64,000 nt of DNA from a virus (taxonomy: Duplodnaviria > Heunggongvirae > Uroviricota > Caudoviricetes): positions 32,001 through 96,000 of IMG/VR virus record IMGVR_UViG_2851976983_000001. The stretch is one strand, 5' to 3'. How positions within the stretch are numbered: the stretch's first letter is position 1; each line of letters opens with the position of its first letter. Of the stretch, positions 932 through 32,192 are shown in pieces. A program made the translations under genes and the position numbers. The notes below the pieces were generated by a model. That model saw only the letters and a program-made list of their open reading frames with translations. It did no database searches and was not told the DNA's origin.

Positions 932-1204
932 TCAGGCTCCTTTTGTTTCGTTGATTCGTTTTAAAGCGGCGGATTCGTCGAATACAATCGCATCGTGATT
1001 AAGGAGTCTGGATACACGAGCGAGGATTTTTACGACCTGCTCGCTGACTAATCCAAACTCGCGATCTGTCGCTTTCATTCCGGCAGCGCCTAGAATTGAC
1101 GGCAGTGCGATGACAGCGTACTCACCGTGATAAAAGACAATCTCTTTTGCCAGTTGGGTGGGGGTGGTTGTAGCGCCATTAATAATCGATTTAAGCATTA
1201 GCAA
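932..1204 (-). CDS. hypothetical protein (90 aa)
   Basis: ORF track; tightly packed between recombinase and exonuclease genes on the same strand. Confidence 0.45.
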   Translation of the reverse strand: MLMLKSIINGATTTPTQLAKEIVFYHGEYAVIALPSILGAAGMKATDREFGLVSEQVVKILARVSRLLNHDAIVFDESAALKRINETKGA

Positions 1205-2193
1205 TACCTTTCGAATGGAAGAACAAACACTTCAAGGTCTTCAAGGAACGAACGGAAATTCAGCTCGTAGCACAGTTGCTCGAATGCTTTCACGTCACGA
1301 TTGCCTTTGATTGTTTCGATTTCGGTAGGCGGAAACTTCGTCTCAATCAGGTTCATTAGCGTGATGTTTCTCTTGAACGCTTCGAGCATTCGACAGCCTG
1401 TTTTCTCGTTGAAGGCATTCTTCGCTAGTTTGTTGAAGGCGGTCTTATGGCGTCCTTTGTCAACCACGATTGAGCCGTCGTTGATGCCGCGTACCATCGT
1501 TGCGACACTTCCCCATTCATGCAGAAGCTCTTTCGCACCGCCAGCACCAATGCCACCAACACCGCTAATGTTGTCCGATTTATCGCCTTGTAATGCTTTT
1601 GCTTCCAAAAATGCGCGAGGCGTGGCGAATCCTGTCAGCTCCGCAAATTGCTCAAAATTAACCTGCTTGTTTTTGGCGTCTTCACGCAGGCTTACCCAGC
1701 TTACGTTTTCACGAACTAACTGAAGCCAGTCGCTATCGCCTGTTAACAGATAGATGTGTTCAACGGTTGGCTGCGGTGCCATGCGGGATACCAGCAGCCC
1801 GGCCAGATCATCCGCTTCTGCATCTTTTGCAATGAGTTGGGTAACTCCAAGCGCGGTCATCATTTTGAGGATGTATGGCTTCTGGATAGCAAAGCCTTCC
1901 TTCATCTTTTTCATATCAGGATCGTCGTCGCGATTTGCTTTGTAGTCCGGGTAAAAGTCGCGACGCTTGTCACTAAATCCATCCCAAAGAATCATAGGTC
2001 GGGCATGGAGGATGGAGGCATAACGACGGACGTTCTTAACAAAGCCGAAAGCAGCCTGTACTTCCATTTCGCCGTTGTGCAATTTGTCAGATTGTTGGTG
2101 GTAATAACCCAGGCTATTGCCATCTACGAAGAGATAATTCACCGGTACATTCCTTCCAAAAAGTAAGGCGTCCGTAGACGCCTTACTGGTCAC
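1198..2193 (-). CDS. 5'-3' exonuclease / flap endonuclease (Pol I N-terminal-like)
   Basis: 331 aa; acidic clusters LTGDSDWLQL and GDKSDNISGVGGIGAGGAKELL (H3TH-type motif) typical of the FEN/5'-3' exonuclease family. Confidence 0.8.
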   Translation of the reverse strand: MTSKASTDALLFGRNVPVNYLFVDGNSLGYYHQQSDKLHNGEMEVQAAFGFVKNVRRYASILHARPMILWDGFSDKRRDFYPDYKANRDDDPDMKKMKEGFAIQKPYILKMMTALGVTQLIAKDAEADDLAGLLVSRMAPQPTVEHIYLLTGDSDWLQLVRENVSWVSLREDAKNKQVNFEQFAELTGFATPRAFLEAKALQGDKSDNISGVGGIGAGGAKELLHEWGSVATMVRGINDGSIVVDKGRHKTAFNKLAKNAFNEKTGCRMLEAFKRNITLMNLIETKFPPTEIETIKGNRDVKAFEQLCYELNFRSFLEDLEVFVLPFERYC

Positions 2194-2202
2194 GTAATGG
2201 GA

Positions 2203-3231
2203 TTACAGAGAGTCCAGCTCTCTCAGTAGGTCATCCAGACCTTCATCTTCCGTCGCAGATGCGGTTGCTACAGATGTCGCTGCGACTGCTTCAGACTCTT
2301 TGACTGATACGGCAACGGCAGCGGAACTTGCCTCTGGTTTAAATTCAGTTTCAACGGCACGGAGGATTTCTTCATCAACCAGACTGGTTGGTTCAGAAGC
2401 CGGTGTGTGCGCGGTTGCTACAGCCGTCGCTCCTTCTGTATGACCAGTGACAGAGCCAAATCCAGGTAGTGCCGCAGCCGATGTTTTCGCGGTTGAGGAA
2501 ATTGCTGGTGCAGATGCTGCGGCAGTTGGTGCAGCGATGCCAATCAGACGACCCATAGTGCGAACTGTCGACAGAAGACGAGTTTCATCAGCCTGATTTG
2601 CGTATGCGATCAGATCATGCTGGGTGTTCCAGAATTTATCTTCGATATCGCCTTTGTAGACTTTACGCTTAGGCGAGACGTCATATTTGGTATCGCGACC
2701 AGAGCCAGTACGTTTAATCAGGAATGCGTAGCCTTCCTCTTTGCTCAGTGGATTGCCGATATCATCAGCGATGTCTTCGGTGATTGCTTTGCAGATATCA
2801 TCGAATACAGTAGACGGCAGCTCGATTAACTGGCATTTCTCAGCATCTGCGAAATCCTCACGAGCAGAAAGAATGCCGTTGACCAGGTAGCGAGGAGTGG
2901 CACGCATTTGACCGATGCGTTCTTCCATTGCTTTGTTACCCTTGTGACGAGCGCGACCTTCCATCACCATTTCGCATAGCTGACAAGCGCGACCGTGAGT
3001 ATGTTGCTCACAAATATAAGCGTTGGTTGCTTCTTTACCTTCCTCATTCTGATACTTAACGTAGTGCATACCGAAAGTCTGGAAGAACTTACCGTTTGGG
3101 TCGTCTTTATTCGGGAAGATGCGGATATAGTTGACGCCGTCTTTTAAGCGAGTCAGATCAACGTTGTTACCACGTTTGGCGGCAATGTCTTCACGAGTTT
3201 TGTTAAGCAAATCAAGTAATGTCTTAGACAT
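2203..3231 (-). CDS. ssDNA-binding protein (Zn-binding, acidic C-terminal tail)
   Basis: 342 aa; C-x3-H-x5-C-x2-C cluster CEQHTHGRACQLC; Ala/Ser/Thr-rich linker; acidic tail EDEGLDDLLRELDSL; sits beside recombinase and exonuclease. Confidence 0.65.
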   Translation of the reverse strand: MSKTLLDLLNKTREDIAAKRGNNVDLTRLKDGVNYIRIFPNKDDPNGKFFQTFGMHYVKYQNEEGKEATNAYICEQHTHGRACQLCEMVMEGRARHKGNKAMEERIGQMRATPRYLVNGILSAREDFADAEKCQLIELPSTVFDDICKAITEDIADDIGNPLSKEEGYAFLIKRTGSGRDTKYDVSPKRKVYKGDIEDKFWNTQHDLIAYANQADETRLLSTVRTMGRLIGIAAPTAAASAPAISSTAKTSAAALPGFGSVTGHTEGATAVATAHTPASEPTSLVDEEILRAVETEFKPEASSAAVAVSVKESEAVAATSVATASATEDEGLDDLLRELDSL

Positions 3232-3348
3232 GTGTTTCTCCTTGTTGTGATTTGGCCGATGGCGCTATGCGCGTTGGGCTTTCGTTCATTCGTGGCTCTT
3301 TCGAGCTGTTAAATGATAGATCAGTACTTACTTATTATCTATCAAAAA

Positions 3349-3780
3349 TCAACGGGGAGTAATAAAGCGTTCAGAGCCTAATCGCTCTAATTCAACGATG
3401 GCCATCTTTGACGCCTGAACGATCATGTCTCGGCGATGCGAAAAGGCGGCGACAGCATGTTTGTATATGTCTGCGATGTGCCGTGCTTCATCCAACTTCT
3501 GCCGTTTAGACAGATACTGTGGGTTTGTTTTAACCTTAGCGTCCAGTACAGACTCGTTGAACTTAATGCCGTTCATACTCAAATTCTTACGCTCTGTGTC
3601 GTATAGCTTTGCTTCAACAGCTTCAAGGTTAAGTTTTGCCTCTGCGACATCTCGATCTGCCTGCGCTAGTTTTGACCCATACTCCATTAAAAGCCGTGGC
3701 TGTTTACGCCATACTTCCTCAAGGTTGTCGCGGTCGAACTCCAGATCGGCCATGATTTTAGAAAAAATATCAGTGTTCAC
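3349..3780 (-). CDS. hypothetical protein (143 aa)
   Basis: ORF track; no recognisable motif. Confidence 0.45.
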   Translation of the reverse strand: MNTDIFSKIMADLEFDRDNLEEVWRKQPRLLMEYGSKLAQADRDVAEAKLNLEAVEAKLYDTERKNLSMNGIKFNESVLDAKVKTNPQYLSKRQKLDEARHIADIYKHAVAAFSHRRDMIVQASKMAIVELERLGSERFITPR

Positions 3781-3988
3781 TCTAATAGGTTCCTACTTAT
3801 AAAATCTGTATCAATTATATCAAACAGAGAACGGGTTTATGGCGTCATGTCAACTTTGTTCAGGGGAAAATATTGAGATCACCGAAGATAATTAGTTGTC
3901 TTATTTTGGTAAGCTGTGCTGACCATCTTTAGGTCACATACATGAGATGGATGGGGGTGTGGCATGAACGGATGAAATTCAGTCGCCG

Positions 3989-4017
3989 TTGACAGATGTC
4001 AACACTGTGAATAGAAT
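3989..4017 (+). promoter_or_regulatory. sigma70-type promoter TTGACA-17-TAGAAT with palindrome GTTGACAGATGTCAAC over the -35
   Basis: Read directly: TTGACA 3989-3994, 17 bp spacer, TAGAAT 4012-4017; GGAGG then ATG at 4035. Confidence 0.5.
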
Positions 4018-4034
4018 ACTATTATCGGAGGCGA

Positions 4035-4259
4035 ATGAAGCAACATCCGAATAAGCATATTCAAGCAGCCATTGACTATGCATTAAGTAAAGGCTGGATC
4101 TGGGTAGCTGCTGGTGGTGCTGCACATTGTTTTTGCAGACTGCGATGCGGTAATCCAGAAGGTGAACACAAAACTCACCAAATGAGCGTATGGTCGACTC
4201 CGGGTAATCCCGAAAACCATGCCAAACAGATCAAACGAATGGTTGATCGTTGTAAATGA
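4035..4259 (+). CDS. small protein, HicA-like toxin candidate (74 aa)
   Basis: Own promoter, RBS GGAGG and terminator; KGW-x8-AH and KQIKRMV resemble the HicA GW...GSHH...ILKQ pattern; weak, by eye. Confidence 0.4.
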   Translation: MKQHPNKHIQAAIDYALSKGWIWVAAGGAAHCFCRLRCGNPEGEHKTHQMSVWSTPGNPENHAKQIKRMVDRCK

Positions 4260-4263
4260 TTTC

Positions 4264-4289
4264 AAGGCGGCATTAGCCGCCTTTTGCAG
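4264..4289 (+). terminator. intrinsic terminator-like hairpin GGCGGC-ATTA-GCCGCC + TTTT
   Basis: Perfect 6 bp GC stem followed by a T-run directly after the 74 aa ORF. Confidence 0.5.
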
Positions 4290-4319
4290 AAACTGTCCAA
4301 CTATCTTCAAAGGAAAACT

Positions 4320-4883
4320 ATGGCGCTTTATAACTTCACTCTGACGCTCTCAGGCGTATCGTATGAGACGGAAGGACTGGAAGACGCGCTGTACCAAAAC
4401 GGCTGTGACGATGCGCTAATTTGCGCATATGGAAACTCCGTCTATGTAGAATTTGACCGCGAAGCACAATCACTTGATGCAGCTATCGCATCTGCGGTCG
4501 ACAATATTGAATCAGCCGGTATCGGTGCAATTGTTGAATCCGTCGACTCGGCTCTTGTGGGCTTAAGCGATATCGCGGAACTGACAGACCTGTCTCGCCA
4601 GGCAGTGGCGTTGCTCAAAGACGGTAAGCGCGGAAGCGGCGACTTCCCTTGCCCTGTACAACGCATAAAAGGCCAGTCTCCTCTCTGGGATTGGGCTGAT
4701 GTGGCTGAATGGCTCATGAATAACGGACGACTTAAAGAGGGCGATCAAATTGTCCAAAATGCCCGAACTTTGAGTAAATGGAATCTGGCGCTTCGAAACA
4801 GCGTCTCGAAAGATTTCAACGAAATAGAGCAAATTGCGGAGAAACTGATTAAACGCCGCAAAGATATTGCGAAATGCGCATAA
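4320..4883 (+). CDS. DNA-binding protein with AlpA-like C-terminal HTH (HicB-like antitoxin candidate)
   Basis: ATG 4320 with AGGAAAA RBS (the track's longer version starts at TTG 4284 inside the terminator hairpin); C-terminal LSRQAVALLKDGKRGSGDFPCPVQRIKGQSPLWDWADVAEWL matches the AlpA pattern. Confidence 0.5.
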   Translation: MALYNFTLTLSGVSYETEGLEDALYQNGCDDALICAYGNSVYVEFDREAQSLDAAIASAVDNIESAGIGAIVESVDSALVGLSDIAELTDLSRQAVALLKDGKRGSGDFPCPVQRIKGQSPLWDWADVAEWLMNNGRLKEGDQIVQNARTLSKWNLALRNSVSKDFNEIEQIAEKLIKRRKDIAKCA

Positions 4884-5212
4884 TGATGCCCGCCAATTGG
4901 CGGGCATCTGTTCTCTGTAAAGGTGTCTGGCATCGTCTGGTTCGTTAACGTTTACTAAACCAATGGTGACAAAAATTAGTTATCTTTGAAAAATAAAGGT
5001 TGCATGAAAAGAAGGGGTATGCGTTAATAGCATCGTTGGTTTGCAAGACAGACCTTATGTAAGCAGTTTTAGTAAAGCAGTCTCAGTTCAGTGTTATCTT
5101 CTGATTTCCCTTCTTCGTGAGTCTCCTCCTTAAGTGCCTAAGTAAGTCCCAATCTATACAGATCAAATTCTCGCCGCACTATGTGGCTCACAAAATTAAG
5201 AAGGTAATATCT

Positions 5213-5428
5213 ATGTCTAATAAAATGACTGGTTTAGTAAAATGGTTTAACTCTGATAAAGGCTTTGGCTTTATTTCTCCTGCTGATGGCAGTAAAGATG
5301 TTTTTGTACATTTTTCGGCAATTCAGAGTAATAATTTCCGCACTTTGGAAGAAGGCCAGCAGGTCGAATTCTCTATCGAGAATGGGGCTAAAGGCCCAGC
5401 AGCAGCAAATGTCGTTGCTCTAAGCTGA
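5213..5428 (+). CDS. cold-shock protein, CspA family
   Basis: [38 protein letters not shown]... is near-identical in pattern to enterobacterial CspA/CspB; AAGAAGG RBS; about 330 nt ORF-free leader upstream. Confidence 0.9.
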
Positions 5429-5704
5429 TTCAACGCTGATGATCCTCATTTCTACAATAACGAAGACGGTGTAAGCCTGAGTGGATAGATTTGTAGGATT
5501 GTACAAGTTGAATAAATTAGCATGGTAAGGCCATGCTAATTAAATCGACACAACGGCCAGTTTATTCCATAAAAGTGAATTGCCCATTGTGGCGAAATGC
5601 GGGGTTGCCGCATGAATAGTCAAAGGCAGAAGCTAACTGCCGGCATGGCAAAACAAAGTGCGTAAGAGGAGTGACTTCCTCAACAAGCGCCATAATTCTT
5701 TATA

Positions 5705-5731: not shown

Positions 5732-8700
5732 TTACTTATTTATTGTCTCCGCGATATCAGCCAGAATGGCCTCCAGTCGCTCTCCTTCTTCCGGTCGGAA
5801 GTACAGGATATTCGGGTTAAATCCGTAGAAGACGGTTGCATCAAGCTCTGGGAAGTACTCCTTACGACCAATCAGATCTGATGGTTTACTCTTATTGTTA
5901 AATAGTGCGGTTGAACGACTACCACACGTCAAAATGTAGGTTGGTCGTACAAGATTAATTTCTTCCCGCATAAAGTCTGTGAACTGGCCTATCTCGTCTT
6001 TGGTATAGTCTTTCTCTTTGTCCTTAACCTTCTTACAAACACCCGTGACATAAAGATCGCCCATGCGCAGATCTCCAACTGTCAGTAGTTTTGCCTTAAA
6101 GTCGTCGTATCCGTTCTCCATGAAGTAGCCGGTACGAGCGTCATTGCCGTTCGCATTGTCCAGAATGATCATGATTTTGGGTTTAATACCAATAGTCGGG
6201 CGTATCAACTCCTCACCCAAGCCCATTTCAGCCGCCATACGTGTCATGAGTACGTTGATTTCGGCAGAACGCTTAGGATTCATTTCGAACGGACGTGATG
6301 CTTTAACAGCGTCAATGATGAGATTGCCCATCAGTTCAGCCTGGTCGCGCAGTCGTTCAGGATCAGTTGCTGGCAGACTGCCTGGCTCAATTGACGCAAA
6401 AGCCCCTACTTTATGAAGCGACTCGCGTACACGACTGTTACATGCACGCTTCTCGACCGCTTCATCGAATTGTGCCACTGACTCGAATTTGCCACCAACT
6501 TTCTCACGCGCACGCATAATTGCCTGACAACCATTTTCAGAACAGCCTTTCACAGCAGAGAATGGCGCATACAGTGCCTGACTGCCGTCTTCGAGTGTGC
6601 GGATCTCAATTCGGTTAGATGACACATTAACGTCTGGTGGCAATACGCGAATGCCATAGGTCAGCGCATCCTTCACCAGCCCCTGATGCTTATCCTCGCC
6701 CAGAATGGTGAGCGCAGCTGCGAAGAACTCAGCAGGGTAGTGCGTCTTTAGCCACATAGACTGATAACTGATTAAAGAATAAGCAACGGAGTGTGATTTA
6801 TTGAACTGATAGGCTCCGTTTTTCTCAAATGCAGTCCATATCTCTTTTGCCTTCGTCTCAGACAGACCTGGATGTGACGTTGTAACGCGCACAACTGGCA
6901 TTGGCAGCTTCACTCCATGCTCCAACGCCTCTTCAACTGTCCTCAGAGTACCGTCCTCGCATTTAAAATGTTCTGCGCGATGAATCCGTTGTATTGCGCC
7001 ATTTTCAAGCTCTACGTCGATCCACCCAGCTTGAGCCTGAATGACAAATTTCTCACCCATGCTCCTCATCTTTTCCATGTTCTTCTTACCGATTGCTGAA
7101 CGCACACCATCCGCCTCGGCCATTGTGAAACCAGCAAGAAGCCTTGTTGCGTTCATCGTTTGTTCCTGATAGAGAATCACTCCATTTGTTTCAGAGGTCA
7201 GTTCATCCAAGACAGGATGTAGTGATGTAGGCGTCATAAATCCTTTCGCAACGGAAACATAGTCATCCAACATGCCGGATTGAATCGGTCCCGGTCGGAA
7301 GAGGGCGGTAGTTGCGACAACGGTTTTGAAACTCATTGGCTCGATGCCACCGCCCAGATCTTTAAGCAGCTTACGCATGGGGCCGGACTCCAGCTGGAAT
7401 ACGCCCTGCGTGTACCCTGCAGCGAACCCATCCAGAACCTTGCGATCGTCCAGTGGGATAGCGTCGAGATTGATGTCTTCACCGGTACTCTCTTTGATGT
7501 AGCGTTTCGCGCTATCCAGAAGATCGAGTGTTGCCAGACCGAGAACGTCCAACTTAATCAGCCCCATCGCCTCGCAGTAACGTTTATCGAACGCAATACA
7601 TCGAGCATTGCCACGCAGCTCGACGGGCGTGCGCTCTACTAATGGAACGCCAGCGACGATCATCCCCGCAGCGTGACGACCAAAACCACGCATCAGGCTT
7701 TGCAGCTTACACGCCGCTTTGAACGCTTCCGGGTTTTTCGTGGCGTATTTGTCCAGGCTGGCCAGTTGCTCGCGCAGCTCTTCCAGAGACAGGCTGTCGT
7801 CCTCCATATTCTTGAACTCTTTGGATACCGCCATATCCGCAGCATCGACACCGTAAATACGTGCAGTGTCACGCAGCGCAGATGCCGCGCCCAGATAGGT
7901 GAAGTTCGGAATGCCTGCAACGTAATCTTCGCCGTAGCGTTCATTCAGATACTCGATCACCTCATGGCGACGTGCCTGGCTGAAGTCCAAGTCCGCATCC
8001 GGCAAGTCGAGACGCTCAGGGTTGATGAAACGCTCAAACAGAAGACCGTGACGGATTGGGTCGACGTTGGTTATGCCTATGCACCACGCCACCAGAGAAC
8101 CGGCAGAGGAACCACGACCAGGCCCGACAGGAATGCCAGTTTCACGGCTGTGATTCATCAGATCGCGTACCATCAGGAAGTAACCACAGAATCCCAGGCG
8201 AGTCAGCGTGTCCATTTCGTACTTTAGCCGCTCAACATAAACCCTGTTCTCAGAAGCAGGTGGTGTGTATCCAAACTCTTTTGTGGTAAGACGTTTACGC
8301 AGCCCTGCAACAGCCAGTTTCATCAGCGTTGCAGGTTCGTCGTCTGCCATCTTGGGCAGTGCTGGTGGCAATTCATGCCAGCGCCATGTGCAGGCATCGA
8401 TAATGGAGTCCTGCGTTGTTGAGGCCATTGCAGCTGTTACCGGCACATCCATGCGAACGGAGAAGGCTTTAAGCGCCTCAAGGAGATGGCGACGACCATT
8501 GATGGCGTTATCTCGCTGGTGGGGGATACGCAGACGATGCGGCTGGTCGATTTTTATGTTGTTCGTAACCATGTGCGCAATGTCTTTAATGTCTGCATCG
8601 TCGATCGATTCGTAATAAGCGGGATAGAACGCCACTGGCTCTATTTTCAATGCGCTGGCGACTTTCATCGCCCGGACGTTAATCTGGTCGTAGAATGGGG

Positions 8701-9250
8701 TAGGGTGCGGATAAACCACACTATAGAAGTTGTCTTTTCCACCCGCTGTAATCAGTGTGCTTATGATTTTTGCAAAATCGTTGCGTTGGAACACGCTACC
8801 GATGTCGGAAGTAAGCAGGATGATGTTACCTTTGGCATATGTAGAAACCAACTGTTCGAGCGAGAGACGCGGTACAAAGTAGAACTGTTCTCGTGTGTTG
8901 GCCGCCGTCATTAGTTCGCAGATGTCGCGATATCCTTTCTCATTTTTAATTAGAGCGGTAAACGAGTAGTTACGTCCTCGCTCCAATGATTCCATACATC
9001 CCTTAGACTCTTTAGCAAGTTTAGCCCGGTGCTCGTATGTGGGATCATCAACGATGTTTAGTTTCACACCACAAATAACCGCCATGTCGTCACCAGCGGC
9101 ACGTTGTAGTGGAATAACGCTCGCAATATTCATGCTATCTGCTGAAATTACAGCGGTGTAGCCAGCTTCTCTGGCAATCTTCACCGCGTTTTCTGCTTTT
9201 AAAGCCGACTCCCCAAGTGAGAAGTCAGTTCGAACCATCAGTGCCTTCAT
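5732..9250 (-). CDS. DNA polymerase III alpha-type (DnaE-like, PHP domain) replicative polymerase
   Basis: 1172 aa; motifs GPGRGSSAGSLVAW, LLFERFINPER, FQLESGPM, ALFRPGP, ILYQEQ, FNKSHSVAYSLISYQSMWLKTHYPAEF align with E. coli DnaE core motifs. Confidence 0.85.
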   Translation of the reverse strand: MKALMVRTDFSLGESALKAENAVKIAREAGYTAVISADSMNIASVIPLQRAAGDDMAVICGVKLNIVDDPTYEHRAKLAKESKGCMESLERGRNYSFTALIKNEKGYRDICELMTAANTREQFYFVPRLSLEQLVSTYAKGNIILLTSDIGSVFQRNDFAKIISTLITAGGKDNFYSVVYPHPTPFYDQINVRAMKVASALKIEPVAFYPAYYESIDDADIKDIAHMVTNNIKIDQPHRLRIPHQRDNAINGRRHLLEALKAFSVRMDVPVTAAMASTTQDSIIDACTWRWHELPPALPKMADDEPATLMKLAVAGLRKRLTTKEFGYTPPASENRVYVERLKYEMDTLTRLGFCGYFLMVRDLMNHSRETGIPVGPGRGSSAGSLVAWCIGITNVDPIRHGLLFERFINPERLDLPDADLDFSQARRHEVIEYLNERYGEDYVAGIPNFTYLGAASALRDTARIYGVDAADMAVSKEFKNMEDDSLSLEELREQLASLDKYATKNPEAFKAACKLQSLMRGFGRHAAGMIVAGVPLVERTPVELRGNARCIAFDKRYCEAMGLIKLDVLGLATLDLLDSAKRYIKESTGEDINLDAIPLDDRKVLDGFAAGYTQGVFQLESGPMRKLLKDLGGGIEPMSFKTVVATTALFRPGPIQSGMLDDYVSVAKGFMTPTSLHPVLDELTSETNGVILYQEQTMNATRLLAGFTMAEADGVRSAIGKKNMEKMRSMGEKFVIQAQAGWIDVELENGAIQRIHRAEHFKCEDGTLRTVEEALEHGVKLPMPVVRVTTSHPGLSETKAKEIWTAFEKNGAYQFNKSHSVAYSLISYQSMWLKTHYPAEFFAAALTILGEDKHQGLVKDALTYGIRVLPPDVNVSSNRIEIRTLEDGSQALYAPFSAVKGCSENGCQAIMRAREKVGGKFESVAQFDEAVEKRACNSRVRESLHKVGAFASIEPGSLPATDPERLRDQAELMGNLIIDAVKASRPFEMNPKRSAEINVLMTRMAAEMGLGEELIRPTIGIKPKIMIILDNANGNDARTGYFMENGYDDFKAKLLTVGDLRMGDLYVTGVCKKVKDKEKDYTKDEIGQFTDFMREEINLVRPTYILTCGSRSTALFNNKSKPSDLIGRKEYFPELDATVFYGFNPNILYFRPEEGERLEAILADIAETINK

Positions 9251-9434
9251 GTGTTTTTACCTTTCTGGTTTTTTTGATTTTGTCATTTGGGAAGCCTACG
9301 AACTTCCCATGCATCGAAATCGCAACTTCTTTTGCTGATTGGTGACAATCGGGCTTGTCTGGACACACCAGACAAGCCTTACCAGTTTCAGAAGCAGCGA
9401 TAAGAGAGCCGAAACATCCTTTACGCACGATCAA
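9225..9434 (-). CDS. small Cys-rich hypothetical protein (69 aa)
   Basis: ORF track; bridges the CobS-like and polymerase genes with overlaps; CxxC-like pairs. Confidence 0.3.
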   Translation of the reverse strand: MIVRKGCFGSLIAASETGKACLVCPDKPDCHQSAKEVAISMHGKFVGFPNDKIKKTRKVKTHEGTDGSN

Positions 9435-10666
9435 CCAAATATTTTTTGAACAACTTCACGAGCCGCTTGTGCAGAAGCTGAAGGGAGTTTGTTAATGAAA
9501 GAACGCTCAATACCTGTCACAAAGTCGCCTCGCATCATTCCAATCTTGGCCGACAACAAAAGTTCACGAGGGCCAATTGGCTGACTGATAAGGTGTTCTT
9601 CGTATCCATCGCGAACGATACCGGCAAACTTAACCATCTTTTCTGCGTATTCATCCACGATACCGGCATTTATCAACATGTTGATCTCTGCCTCTTTGCT
9701 CATGTATTTCACATTCGAAACGATGCCAAAACGCGAAAAGTTCGCGGCGTTCTGGATGTTTGTACCCTGGTACAAGCCGGTTTCATCACCAGATCCGTTC
9801 GTGTTGCCAGTGCCAATGAAAGCAAACCGTTCATGCGGAGTAATGCGACGCCATTCTGGAGTCGCCTCTTTGATGACTAACGCTTCACCTTCCAGCACTG
9901 GCTGATACACGCCAAGAATTTGTGGAAACGCAAAGTCGTATTCATCCGCGAGGTAAACCCAGCCATGCTTCATTGCGAGCGCAAGCAAGCCAGGCTCGAA
10001 ATACGTAGAGCCATCACGCGCCAGAATTTGCCCCGTAACATGTGCCTCTTCCATTGATGCTGTATGTTGGGCACGGATCAACGGACGATTGAGCAAAGCA
10101 CATAGTTGTGTAGGCAATGACGATTTGCCTGTTCCTGCATGACCCCACAAATAGCCAGGTATGCCAAGTTCAAGCATCATGAAAATGTCTTTGATCAGTT
10201 CGAAGTCGCCATATACGTATCCCTTCTTCACTTCTGGAACGAACTCTGGAAACGGCGTATTGACGTTGACGCTAACCATGAGCGGCGTCCCACGTTTTGT
10301 TCCGAGTTCTTTCACCGTTACATTTAGCAGTTCGTGAGCTGCGACCAGATCTGTCTTGTACTCAACTGTGCCTGTGTAGCCTGGGCTACTGGTCACGCCA
10401 GATGATTTGGCCATTTCGCTTTTTTGCTCGGCACGTTTAGCTTGAATTGCATCAAGTGCCTTTTTCGATAGCGTTGGCTCATCTGGAAACTGTGTTGTGT
10501 ACATTTTCAGTACGGTGTCAGGATCGGCATCTTTTACTGACTCAGGAATGCCCTCGCAATTACCATTGGCTACATGGGACTTAAAATAGTGAAATGATTT
10601 TCCGCACCACTTGCAAACAAGGTAATCAGAAGGATTTTTTTCATTTTGCAGTGCAGTAGTAGTCAT
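9431..10666 (-). CDS. AAA+ ATPase, MoxR/CobS-like
   Basis: 411 aa; Walker A GHAGTGKSS; N-terminal Cys/His cluster; paired with downstream vWA protein. Confidence 0.75.
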   Translation of the reverse strand: MTTTALQNEKNPSDYLVCKWCGKSFHYFKSHVANGNCEGIPESVKDADPDTVLKMYTTQFPDEPTLSKKALDAIQAKRAEQKSEMAKSSGVTSSPGYTGTVEYKTDLVAAHELLNVTVKELGTKRGTPLMVSVNVNTPFPEFVPEVKKGYVYGDFELIKDIFMMLELGIPGYLWGHAGTGKSSLPTQLCALLNRPLIRAQHTASMEEAHVTGQILARDGSTYFEPGLLALAMKHGWVYLADEYDFAFPQILGVYQPVLEGEALVIKEATPEWRRITPHERFAFIGTGNTNGSGDETGLYQGTNIQNAANFSRFGIVSNVKYMSKEAEINMLINAGIVDEYAEKMVKFAGIVRDGYEEHLISQPIGPRELLLSAKIGMMRGDFVTGIERSFINKLPSASAQAAREVVQKIFG

Positions 10667-10761
10667 GCGTTTTTCCTTTGTTTTCTAATGAGCGTTCAAC
10701 TTCTTATATAAATATATCATTATCTATCGTAAGTGGTTACTTATCGTTAAGGCTGTTTTGT

Positions 10762-12870
10762 TCACTTTAAAATGATACGAGATAGTTCAGTAACTACAGA
10801 TGAACCAAGACTATCAACGCTCGTTACCAGGGCATGTTTTGAGTAAAATCTCTCCGGTGCGTCAGTCATGATGCCAATTGCCATCAAATCAATGTCAGTC
10901 TGCGTTTCAATTTGCTTCGCAACCGAACGCAAATGAGCGTCAAAACCTCTCCCAACAGCCCACGGCGCGCCATCACTCAGAACAAGCATGATCTTCCTGT
11001 CCTCCATGCGACCGGAAAATAACGATGCAAGGCTGGCTATGCTTTCACCATCCACGTTATTAAGAAGTGGGAATGTGTAGCCTACGCACCCCATACGTGA
11101 GCGAACTTCGCGAGAATTTACCTTTTCATTCCAATTTTTGATGATAGGTAGCATTAAAGATTCAAAGCGAGAGAACTCATACTTGACAGCCTTAAGTTCT
11201 CCTGCCGCCATATGACTACCAAATGTAGTGAAGCCGGTGATAATGTTGGGAACATTTATTCGATCAAGGGCATCGGCGATGGTATATGCACTTGCAAGAG
11301 CCAATTGTATCGTTATACCACTCATTGAACCTGATAAATCAATCACTTGTTGAACACAGGCGTTAACGGCTTTAGATTCTTCTTTTTTACGAAACACGCG
11401 ATCATCATTCATTGCTAATCTGTAGATACTAGAACCATGAATGCGCCCCCGACGCTGGCCCGGTATAAACTGAACTCTGTTTCTGCTTGCTATTGCTCGC
11501 TCCAGGTCTTTTGCCAGCGTCGACGAAACACCTGACGAAAGATGCTTTTCAATATATTTGTCGAAGAGCTGGTTGCCTTCAGGAACGATGCGATAGCGGC
11601 TGATTGGATATCCTCCTAAATCAATATCGGAGAATGTTTTAATAAGCCGTTTGATATGGGCTTCTGCCTGATCAATCGAGCCGATGAAGTCGTATGAGCG
11701 ATTGTATGGCCTGTATTCGCTTTTCGAGCTTTCTGTTAACTCGCTTTTAATCGTTTCGGATAGAGCATCTTCTGTCATGCCTCCGACTTCATCTTCTATG
11801 CTATCCAGCTCCTCTAAAGCCTCTTCCAGACTCATTTTTGACGGAGTTGGGATATCTGAAGAGCCGTCTTCTGTCGTTTTTCTTTTTTCGTGGTCAGCGG
11901 TTAATGATTCTGACGCCGCGTTATCAGAAGCATCAGAATCTGATACCTCTTTATCATTTTCTGTATCATCGAATATTGTTTCTGATGATTCAGAATTATC
12001 TGAATCATCACTGTCATTATTATCATGTTTGTACTTACTGTGTGACTCTGGTTTGATAGATTTGTGATTATCTAGCGATGAGGGTGTCTCATGATCTTCG
12101 TCGTCTTCATTGTTTTCTCCAGAGGCATCCGTCTGGTCAGCGTCTGAAGGATCGGAAGTTTTTCCCGGAGCTGACTCCTTACCTTTGCTTTCACTTTCAG
12201 TGTCTTTGAGGATCTTAGCTATGGTCGCAGCCACCTTTACACAATCCTCGGTGCAAGACATGTTACGCACGGCCACATCGATACCATGTTCTTTTAATAA
12301 TGAAATTGGTTTCTCAATGACAGGCCAGTATTCATCCATGAAATCTACGAACGGTGCTTGGCCATCCCAGGCTCTTACAACCGGACAGAGAAAGAAGTTT
12401 AGAAAAAGCGCGCGCTGATCTTTGCCACAATAAGCAATAGCCTCTGAAGCCTTTGGTTTAAAGACTTTTTCGATTATAAGGCGTTGAGTTGCCATCAGAT
12501 TACGTCTTGTTCCGTTAAAGACCTGCCCCATTTTTCGCTCGATGAACACGTCTTCTAAGGCATTCCATAGCGACCAGGAAGGAACGCGTCCTTTTTCTCT
12601 CATTTTGTTGGACACACGAATATCGGTAAACAAAATGTGAGCAACCTCATGATCGAGAAATCCGCGCACAGCATTCATCAATGCCGGTGTTGCGTTATCC
12701 GGGATTGATGGGATGTTTACGAGAATTGGCTCTCCATCATCGTTATAGCGTACATAAGCGTCGTCTCCTCGTTCTGCAACAGGGATGTTTTTACCTGAAA
12801 GGAGAGCGACTACTCGTTTTACACTGTCACGGAAGTCCTGAACCTCTTTGATGGAACGTTTTTTAGACAT
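10762..12870 (-). CDS. von Willebrand factor A domain protein (CobT-like) with long acidic linker
   Basis: 702 aa; MIDAS-type motif VIDLSGSMSG in the C-terminal part; about 120 aa Asp/Ser/Glu-rich linker. Confidence 0.75.
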   Translation of the reverse strand: MSKKRSIKEVQDFRDSVKRVVALLSGKNIPVAERGDDAYVRYNDDGEPILVNIPSIPDNATPALMNAVRGFLDHEVAHILFTDIRVSNKMREKGRVPSWSLWNALEDVFIERKMGQVFNGTRRNLMATQRLIIEKVFKPKASEAIAYCGKDQRALFLNFFLCPVVRAWDGQAPFVDFMDEYWPVIEKPISLLKEHGIDVAVRNMSCTEDCVKVAATIAKILKDTESESKGKESAPGKTSDPSDADQTDASGENNEDDEDHETPSSLDNHKSIKPESHSKYKHDNNDSDDSDNSESSETIFDDTENDKEVSDSDASDNAASESLTADHEKRKTTEDGSSDIPTPSKMSLEEALEELDSIEDEVGGMTEDALSETIKSELTESSKSEYRPYNRSYDFIGSIDQAEAHIKRLIKTFSDIDLGGYPISRYRIVPEGNQLFDKYIEKHLSSGVSSTLAKDLERAIASRNRVQFIPGQRRGRIHGSSIYRLAMNDDRVFRKKEESKAVNACVQQVIDLSGSMSGITIQLALASAYTIADALDRINVPNIITGFTTFGSHMAAGELKAVKYEFSRFESLMLPIIKNWNEKVNSREVRSRMGCVGYTFPLLNNVDGESIASLASLFSGRMEDRKIMLVLSDGAPWAVGRGFDAHLRSVAKQIETQTDIDLMAIGIMTDAPERFYSKHALVTSVDSLGSSVVTELSRIILK

Positions 12871-31824: not shown

Positions 31825-32192
31825 TTTGTAGCAGAATCATCAGCCTTAACCGTGCTGACAATGCTACCATGATTGCGTAAGAAGCGGCGAATAGAATGTT
31901 CAATAACCTCCGAAAAAGCCTCGATAAAACGAGACAGCTCAGGGTACTGTTTAGCTGGCTTGACTACAAAACGAACACGACCATTCAGGTAAATTGCTTC
32001 AGCTAATGGCTTCACGCTTGCACCAGCGCGCTCAACATCGTCTTTGAAGGTAACGATGAAGCGTGAGTCTTCCGGTTCAATAGCGTCATTATTGAGCTTA
32101 CGTACTTCAAGCTTGTGCTGATTCAGCACATGAGTCTCGATAATACTCGTGCAATCGCGAATAGTTTGTATAGAACGTTTCTCGTTCAGCAT
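31809..32192 (-). CDS. hypothetical protein (127 aa)
   Basis: ORF track. Confidence 0.45.
   Translation of the reverse strand: MLNEKRSIQTIRDCTSIIETHVLNQHKLEVRKLNNDAIEPEDSRFIVTFKDDVERAGASVKPLAEAIYLNGRVRFVVKPAKQYPELSRFIEAFSEVIEHSIRRFLRNHGSIVSTVKADDSATKWLLH

Follow-up and report, generated by a model that had tools for sequence, protein, structure and literature searches.

What kind of module is formed by two adjacent plus-strand genes that stand behind a palindrome-covered promoter in a virus of the Caudoviricetes (IMG/VR record IMGVR_UViG_2851976983_000001, positions 32,001 to 96,000; this 64-kb stretch, the whole of the DNA analysed, is called the window here)? A preliminary description of this DNA had proposed a HicAB-like addiction pair. 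The organisation on which that proposal was built, two genes arranged like a toxin–antitoxin (TA) system with the small gene first and strictly paired, has stood, but membership in the HicAB family has not. We refer to the genes as A and B and to both as the A-B cassette. Our analysis leans towards an autonomous type II TA-like cassette that would act by a TA mechanism, a reading that draws on the anatomy of the locus, the linkage of A to B, the mobility of the pair, its operator, the asymmetry of its orphan genes, its match to the PDC-M06 candidates of the PADLOC collection and its expression in a lysogen. The pair is best described as a toxin-like protein of predicted HicA fold and probable zinc site, with a putative DNA-binding partner that is not HicB. 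The features of the cassette are as follows.

3988..4003, plus strand: operator palindrome GTTGACA-GA-TGTCAAC (core GTTGAC-N4-GTCAAC), with 7-bp arms, covering the −35
3989..4017, plus strand: sigma-70 promoter TTGACA-17-TAGAAT (−35 at 3989-3994, −10 at 4012-4017; 11/12 match)
4027..4031, plus strand: Shine-Dalgarno sequence GGAGG of gene A (CGGAGG recurs there in enterobacterial homologues)
4035..4259, plus strand: gene A, 74 amino acids (aa), protein of predicted HicA fold and putative toxin, with a putative zinc site (C38, H45, H48, C73) and conserved H4, K7, H31 and H62
4264..4285, plus strand: intergenic GC hairpin AAGGCGGC-atta-GCCGCCTT (stem-loop 4264-4283) followed by TT, minimum free energy about −16 to −18 kcal/mol
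4320..4883, plus strand: gene B, 187 aa, from the ATG at 4320 to the stop at 4883, putative antitoxin and autorepressor
4885..4908, plus strand: strong intrinsic terminator closing the A-B operon, GATGCCCGCC-AATT-GGCGGGCATC plus a T-rich tail (10-bp stem, 8 GC pairs)

Distribution and pairing of the two genes

Relatives of A were sought in 185,579 species-representative genomes, one per species, and found in 443 species; 80 loci were examined. In every one of these 80 loci from other species, A was followed by a homologue of B on the same strand. The loci come from Enterobacterales, Pasteurellales, Moraxellaceae, Neisseriaceae, Legionella, Alteromonadales, Alphaproteobacteria, Balneolia and Planctomycetes, and the distance between the two genes ranges from 0 to 195 nucleotides (nt), being 0–3 nt in Acinetobacter, Pasteurellaceae and Neisseria and 30–195 nt in Enterobacterales and Morganellaceae. 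Just three of the loci have a context like that of the Salmonella phage SSU5. Elsewhere the cassette sits in the accessory (moron) region of a P2-like prophage, beside YefM/YoeB, or alone among housekeeping genes, as in Providencia and Pantoea. The prophage is one of Histophilus somni (locus L083), where the cassette (6641-7152) lies about 850 nt downstream of YefM/YoeB and both pairs are placed between the portal/capsid and the tail-fibre genes.

No A without B was found in the 80 A-anchored loci. A scan anchored on B gave 54 loci, and seven of them had B without A, namely two clean losses of A (L128 and L132) and five remnants. The five remnants are in the SSU5-like IMG/VR contigs L138-L142, where the promoter and the whole of A are gone together with 21 codons from the start of B (at about 2850-3000), and the truncated B adjoins a uvsY-like gene; these deletions indicate that the phage-plasmid can do without the cassette. 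That B occurs alone and A never does is an asymmetry classically shown by a toxin and its antidote. Co-directional pairing across contexts, a palindromic operator over the promoter and orphan asymmetry, three of the generic marks of a type II TA system, are found here.

The cassette is not new to the databases, where it is present under conflicting labels. Between positions 3800 and 5500 the window is 99.8% identical in DNA sequence to Escherichia phage Cyrano (OV696614), which is the SSU5-like phage-plasmid pLF82 of E. coli LF82, and whose record labels A as 'HicA toxin protein' (CYRAN_51) and B as 'putative antitoxin HicB' (CYRAN_50). SSU5 itself carries an orthologous pair at the same position (SSU5_055/SSU5_054), labelled as hypothetical and 'AlpA-like regulator', with an A protein of just 57% identity. 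These two pairs and that of the Yersinia pestis pMT1-type plasmids are orthologous cassettes in the same place, between a uvsY-like gene and dnaE. The RefSeq labels assigned by PGAP are 'hypothetical protein' for A and 'helix-turn-helix/AlpA family transcriptional regulator' for B; the first of these persists in hundreds of plasmids because the family is missing from Pfam and NCBIfam. Matches to PHROG families 5923 (unknown function) and 2620 were obtained for the two proteins. In PADLOC, six PDC-M06A models match A (best 1.2e-19, residues 2-74) and PDC-M06B matches B (1.3e-32, residues 3-161), and since these profiles hit adjacent genes in the same order, A-B belongs to the PDC-M06 family. 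The hosts of the cassette include SSU5-type phage-plasmids of E. coli, Enterobacter, Citrobacter and Klebsiella. It was found on 296 plasmids of PLSDB, mostly of 95–120 kb and non-mobilizable, the Y. pestis pMT1-type plasmids among them, and in 107 of 5,426 complete E. coli genomes, every time on a plasmid (phage-plasmids of roughly 100 kb).

Given the synteny between the uvsY-like gene and dnaE, which holds in Cyrano, SSU5, Kluyvera contigs and the pMT1-type plasmids, the pair might be thought a core regulator of lysis-lysogeny or replication in SSU5-type phage-plasmids, placed between their recombination and replication blocks, all the more so as B-type proteins are annotated as AlpA- or excisionase-like. 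Such a role is extremely improbable and we have rejected it: 77 of the 80 loci are not SSU5-like, the SSU5-like contigs L138-L142 have dispensed with promoter, A and start of B, and the 64-kb window contains no second copy of the operator.

Promoter, operator and transcription

The promoter TTGACA-17-TAGAAT with its −35 inside a palindrome, as given in the preliminary description, is present in the window, and transcription would be expected to start near 4024. It is the sole sigma-70 site with a match of at least 11/12 on either strand of the window; in the shuffled window about 1.1 such sites are expected, so the promoter match is by itself not significant. The palindrome is likewise unique in the window, and a search at up to two mismatches, which might have revealed a regulon, found no further operator copies there. 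A palindrome of this kind appears in 25% of shuffles and is weak evidence taken alone; its significance derives from conservation across loci and not from the statistics of a single window.

That conservation is extensive. A GTNNAC-N4-GTNNAC palindrome located 39–75 nt 5' of the A start is perfect in 63 of the 80 loci and has one mismatch in 10 more (73/80), as against 2 of 1806 random 110-nt windows of the same loci (0.1%). In the homologous loci it always lies over the −35, its left arm being the −35 itself, and in most of them a −10-like hexamer follows about 7 nt past the right arm. The arms covary, with GTTGAC/GTCAAC in 56 loci, GTTTAC/GTAAAC in five, and GTGGAC/GTCCAC and GTAGAC/GTCTAC in one each. 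The layout typical of autoregulation that had been pointed out for this DNA is therefore conserved, compensatory arm changes included.

The exceptions connect the operator to one part of B. In the two viral contigs from IMG/VR where A has been cleanly lost (L128, 2940-3003; L132, 2935-3003), the GTTGAC-N4-GTCAAC operator and the −10 stand directly before B. Conversely, two metagenome-assembled genomes (MAGs) of Cardiobacteriaceae (L043, L061) and one of Planctomycetaceae (L073) encode a partner without a helix-turn-helix (HTH), and have no GTTGAC palindrome upstream. The operator travels with the HTH of B, and from the conserved arrangement the cassette is very probably autoregulated through it. 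In an Alteromonadaceae MAG (L037) two tandem operator copies (GTTGACGTTTGTCAAC-AAACAT-GTTGACAGACGTCAAC) are found about 75–38 nt upstream of A.

Whether A and B form one transcription unit had been left in doubt, the hairpin with a T-run between them having been taken as a sign that they may be transcribed separately. The hairpin is real, but its T-run amounts to only four T's, for which reason the terminator scan did not call it, and its status as a canonical intrinsic terminator is unsupported. Separate transcription has been largely answered in the negative: the genes abut or overlap in other loci, no promoter site of at least 9/12 for B was detected within A or the spacer, and both genes are expressed in a lysogen. 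Relative to the prophage background, expression in the Cyrano lysogen reaches 30x for A and 14x for B, and the authors of the LF82 study count both genes among the prophage 'morons' (PMC9928086).

Hairpins recur at this place. Where the spacer is at least 45 nt, 20 of 36 loci fold at z<-2, with GC-rich stems that differ in sequence, many of them of the AAGGCGG…CCGCCTT(T) type, and the hairpin is missing where A and B abut. It is thus a recurrent, non-universal element found in the enterobacterial branch. Since relatives have hairpins of a similar kind we have retained a role for it, and most likely it acts as a leaky terminator or an RNA 3'-stabilising element that would set the ratio of A to B, and does not break the operon.

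Predicted folds and their relation to HicAB

The two motifs that had suggested HicA, KGW-x8-AH and KQIKRMV, are both found in the 74-aa protein. The likeness to HicA holds for the predicted fold but does not extend to a family match by sequence. An AlphaFold model of A (predicted local distance difference test score, pLDDT, of 87) has the order α1(7-18)-β1-β2(32-37)-β3-α2(59-72), which corresponds to the α1-β1-β2-β3-α2 fold of the HicA family, resembling a double-stranded RNA-binding domain, and the closest structural neighbours of the model are toxins. Going by this model, A resembles HicA toxins in fold and not in sequence. An exhaustive HMMER profile search collected 712 representative relatives of A, yet no HicA model in Pfam or NCBIfam matches A at E<=1. 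A profile search of PDB sequences found no HicA for A and nothing for B. A weak Pfam match of A to RuBisCO_small (15 of 125 members, best E 0.002) was discarded as spurious, being below the gathering threshold and without support from context.

In HicA toxins the catalytic His belongs to a GSH motif: it follows a turn that contains Gly and stands where β2 begins. In the A family, H31 is kept in 117 of 125 members, right before β2, in a G-x-S-A-H or G-H context, and a weak hhalign alignment offsets it by one residue from the HicA His. Also conserved are H62 (106 of 125) and the N-terminal H4 and K7 of an HPNK motif; from the register of strands and helices in the model, H62 and H4/K7 should be near H31. 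Several close relatives of A (P0010, P0031, P0054, P0185 and P0201) are frameshifted or truncated in public assemblies, for example by out-of-frame read-through after SVWST, forms that may stem either from the inactivation of a harmful gene or from errors in assembly.

A second set of conserved residues is made up of Cys and His. C38 is present in 122 of 125 members, C73 in 120, and position 48 is Cys in 99 or His in 21. A fourth His or Cys is located either in the loop before position 48 (78 members; H45 in the protein studied here) or in a C-x-H tail after C73 (51 members), with both in 20 members and neither in 2 of 151. Such an alternating fourth ligand fits what is predicted for a tetrahedral metal site, and this conservation makes it probable that A carries a zinc site formed by C38, H45, H48 and C73.

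B has 187 aa and not the 188 first reported. The TTG at 4284 with which the raw open reading frame begins falls within the hairpin, and it can be dismissed as the start because the N-terminus from M1 (MALYNF) is invariant in homologues. The model of B (pLDDT 90) consists of a ferredoxin-like β-α-β-β-α-β N-domain (1-76), a winged HTH (~79-136; helices 82-89 and 93-100, plus wing) and a helical hairpin (143-186). The N-terminal domain and HTH that had been proposed for B are thus both in the model, but the AlpA/excisionase type of the latter, represented by PF05930 and PF12728, depends on sub-threshold matches, with Phage_AlpA in 8 of 36 members (best E 0.025); there are also weak matches to PHROG 'excisionase and transcriptional regulator' families 66 (2e-4) and 2790 (1e-3). 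A match of B to CagE_TrbE_VirB in Pfam (17 of 36, best E 0.0016) was set aside for the same reasons as RuBisCO_small. As to the suggestion that B is a HicB-type antitoxin, it did not hold: no HicB model in Pfam or NCBIfam, such as PF15919 or PF05534, matches B at E<=1, none of the 36 members of its family matches either, and in place of the partial RNase-H-like β-β-β-α-β domain of HicB, B begins with a ferredoxin-like one.

The three HTH-less loci mentioned above (L043, L061 and L073, the last at 4213-4550) are informative on this domain. In them A is followed by a protein of 87–91 aa that corresponds to the ferredoxin-like N-domain of B alone, which shows that the smallest unit to be conserved consists of A and this domain. 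These versions point to the N-domain as the part of B that binds A.

Could the pair still be a bona fide HicAB, with A a divergent member of PF07927 and B a HicB antitoxin, acting like the E. coli system? The annotation of Cyrano in GenBank/ENA says so, the toxin-first order is identical, and a conserved His precedes β2. Against these stand the failure of A and B to match any HicA or HicB model, already described, the family-wide comparisons with PF07927 given below, the conserved Cys/His ligands of A, which canonical HicA lacks, and the different labels used by RefSeq; for B the proposal is largely refuted by the predicted fold. By sequence, canonical HicA/HicB membership is rejected on the searches of Pfam, NCBIfam, PDB profiles, the 125 A and 36 B members and hhalign, and we regard a divergent HicAB of this kind as very unlikely. 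A-B is not a classical HicAB because a sequence-level family match is lacking and the predicted fold of B is not HicB-like.

Compared with HicAB (PF07927; structures 6HPB, 6G26, 4P78, 5YRZ and 1WHZ), the cassette shares the order of the (here putative) toxin and antitoxin genes, a small α-β-β-β-α protein (58–75 residues) in which a conserved His would take up a comparable place next to β2, a partner with an N-terminal protein-binding and a C-terminal DNA-binding domain (both predicted for B), and a palindromic operator over the promoter. It differs in the lack of detectable sequence homology, in the Cys/His ligands (putatively for zinc), the extra conserved H62 and the HPNK motif of A, and in the GC hairpin between the genes in the enterobacterial branch. 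The partner differs too, since the N-domain of B is ferredoxin-like whereas that of HicB has a partial RNase-H fold, and its DNA-binding domain is excisionase/AlpA-like, while HicB proteins use either a ribbon-helix-helix or an Xre-type HTH. MqsRA and HigBA also have a toxin-first order, an HTH antitoxin that is the autorepressor and a palindromic operator at the promoter. A-B has in common with them this reverse gene order, the palindromic promoter operator and, putatively, the HTH antitoxin-autorepressor, but their toxin folds are RelE-like and unrelated to A, and in MqsRA zinc is bound by the antitoxin, unlike the site proposed in the toxin-like A.

Proposed function and genomic surroundings

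The mechanism that we favour for a TA-like cassette would run as follows. One strong promoter would transcribe A and then B. A would be a zinc-stabilised RNase of HicA fold, as its fold and conserved His suggest, that halts growth once B has been lost or broken down, its active site likely being a cluster of conserved histidines with H31 just ahead of β2, H62 where α2 begins, and the N-terminal H4/K7. The ferredoxin-like N-domain of B would bind and neutralise A, and a dimer of B would bind GTTGAC-N4-GTCAAC via its excisionase/AlpA-like winged HTH, occlude the −35 and repress the operon. In the enterobacterial branch, the hairpin would most likely tune the ratio of A to B transcripts, either by leaky termination or by stabilising the 3' end. 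For a phage-plasmid of the SSU5 type, kept at a low copy number of about 5 per cell (PMC9928086), the expected outcome would be post-segregational killing (plasmid addiction), defence by abortive infection, or both.

Several results weigh against this TA model. The main internal argument is the excess of A transcript: with the hairpin between the genes, B reaches about half the relative level of A in the lysogen, although a TA pair should have its antitoxin in excess. Of 125 diverse members of the A family, none reaches PF07927 at E<=1 in Pfam, and when the family is compared by hhalign with 124 PF07927 proteins and the HicAs of PDB the probability is 7%. The generic ferredoxin-like fold predicted for the N-domain of B is not one known from antitoxins. 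Strict pairing and autoregulation are also compatible with a non-toxic two-component regulator. In the literature we found no experimental characterisation of the A-B family; a search on TA modules of SSU5/pHCM2 and on HicA with AlpA yielded just the annotation and the expression table of LF82/Cyrano, and the LF82 paper (PMC9928086) describes no experiment on the function of the pair.

The non-toxic module just alluded to would have B as a transcription factor and A as a small zinc-binding co-regulator or anti-repressor acting on the DNA binding of B. It would make good sense of a predicted DNA-binding protein with a conserved operator, of an A protein that probably has a structural zinc site and is not related in sequence to known toxin families, of the A transcript excess and the intergenic hairpin, which are awkward for a toxin, and of the ferredoxin/ACT-like domain, typical of ligand or partner sensing in regulators. 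We nevertheless hold it unlikely. Within the window there is no operator besides that of the cassette itself, which leaves no further target in sight, and a cassette that moves whole into unrelated contexts has no fixed regulon. The HTH-less versions keep A and the N-domain, which fits neutralisation better than co-regulation; A never occurs without B while B survives alone; and the best structural neighbours of the A model are toxins.

A proposal closer to the TA-like cassette is that of a moron whose primary role is anti-phage defence (PDC-M06), with B restraining A until an infecting phage triggers its release and A aborts the infection. This overlaps with the TA model in mechanism and differs in the function selected for. 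TA systems often serve as abortive-infection modules, both PDC-M06 profiles match at full length, the Histophilus cassette has a second TA module as its neighbour in the accessory region of a P2-like prophage, and the LF82 prophage expresses the pair as a moron. But the PDC class is described as one of unpublished and experimentally unverified candidates; in the literature covered we found no paper naming PDC-M06, nor any mechanism, fold assignment or experimental test for it. The Providencia and Pantoea copies lie among housekeeping genes with no recognisable defence island, and for the occurrences on phage-plasmids of about 100 kb (the 296 PLSDB plasmids and 107 E. coli genomes) addiction is equally plausible. 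As the primary function, defence appears somewhat doubtful, although less so than the regulatory role; within the TA-like cassette, the PADLOC match and the prophage-moron locations leave abortive infection as open as addiction.

If these elements are combined, a tentative picture emerges in which the pair would be the founder of an uncharacterised type II TA/defence family (PDC-M06), with a zinc-stabilised, two-His RNase of HicA fold, a ferredoxin-like antitoxin domain of a sort not seen before and a leaky terminator, serving in both addiction and abortive infection. In the same tentative picture, the leaky terminator would set the toxin to antitoxin ratio in enterobacterial phage-plasmids, including those of the Y. 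pestis pMT1 type and the SSU5/pHCM2 type. Should A be a toxin, it would represent a distinct branch of the HicA fold, with a probable zinc site and a new antitoxin architecture. TA modules of plasmids and prophages are a very familiar class and this locus was already labelled HicAB in one record, which makes the surprise a moderate one. The family is widespread and occurs on phage-plasmids of medical relevance. SSU5-type and pMT1-type elements also spread resistance genes, and a module for addiction or defence would matter both for their stable maintenance and for the response of their hosts to other phages. With covarying operators, HTH-less versions and A-less versions, the family offers a ready comparative system for the study of autoregulation.

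In the window, the genes flanking the cassette are on the minus strand (uvsY-like at 3349-3780, gp32-like single-stranded DNA-binding protein (SSB), exonuclease and dnaE at 5732-9250). The cassette interrupts a minus-strand block (1198-3780 and 5732-12870) that encodes an exonuclease, a T4 gp32-like SSB, a UvsY-like mediator, a DnaE-type polymerase III alpha subunit and CobS/CobT-like (AAA/VWA) proteins, and is typical of SSU5-type phage-plasmids. The DnaE of the window is about 93% identical to that of Cyrano, compared with 99.8% for the cassette, a contrast that suggests mosaicism.

Three plus-strand genes had been noted amid this minus-strand region, a layout that we confirm, but the third gene is a separate unit and does not form part of the pair. 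It corresponds to the following features.

5035-5453, plus strand: cspA thermoregulator leader (RF01766, full-length; Rfam, 186 bits)
5213-5428, plus strand: open reading frame of a CspA/CspG-like cold-shock gene (NCBIfam CspG, 147 bits)

A single unit of all three genes was rejected, as the cspA-like gene is preceded by a leader of its own and SSU5 lacks it at this position.

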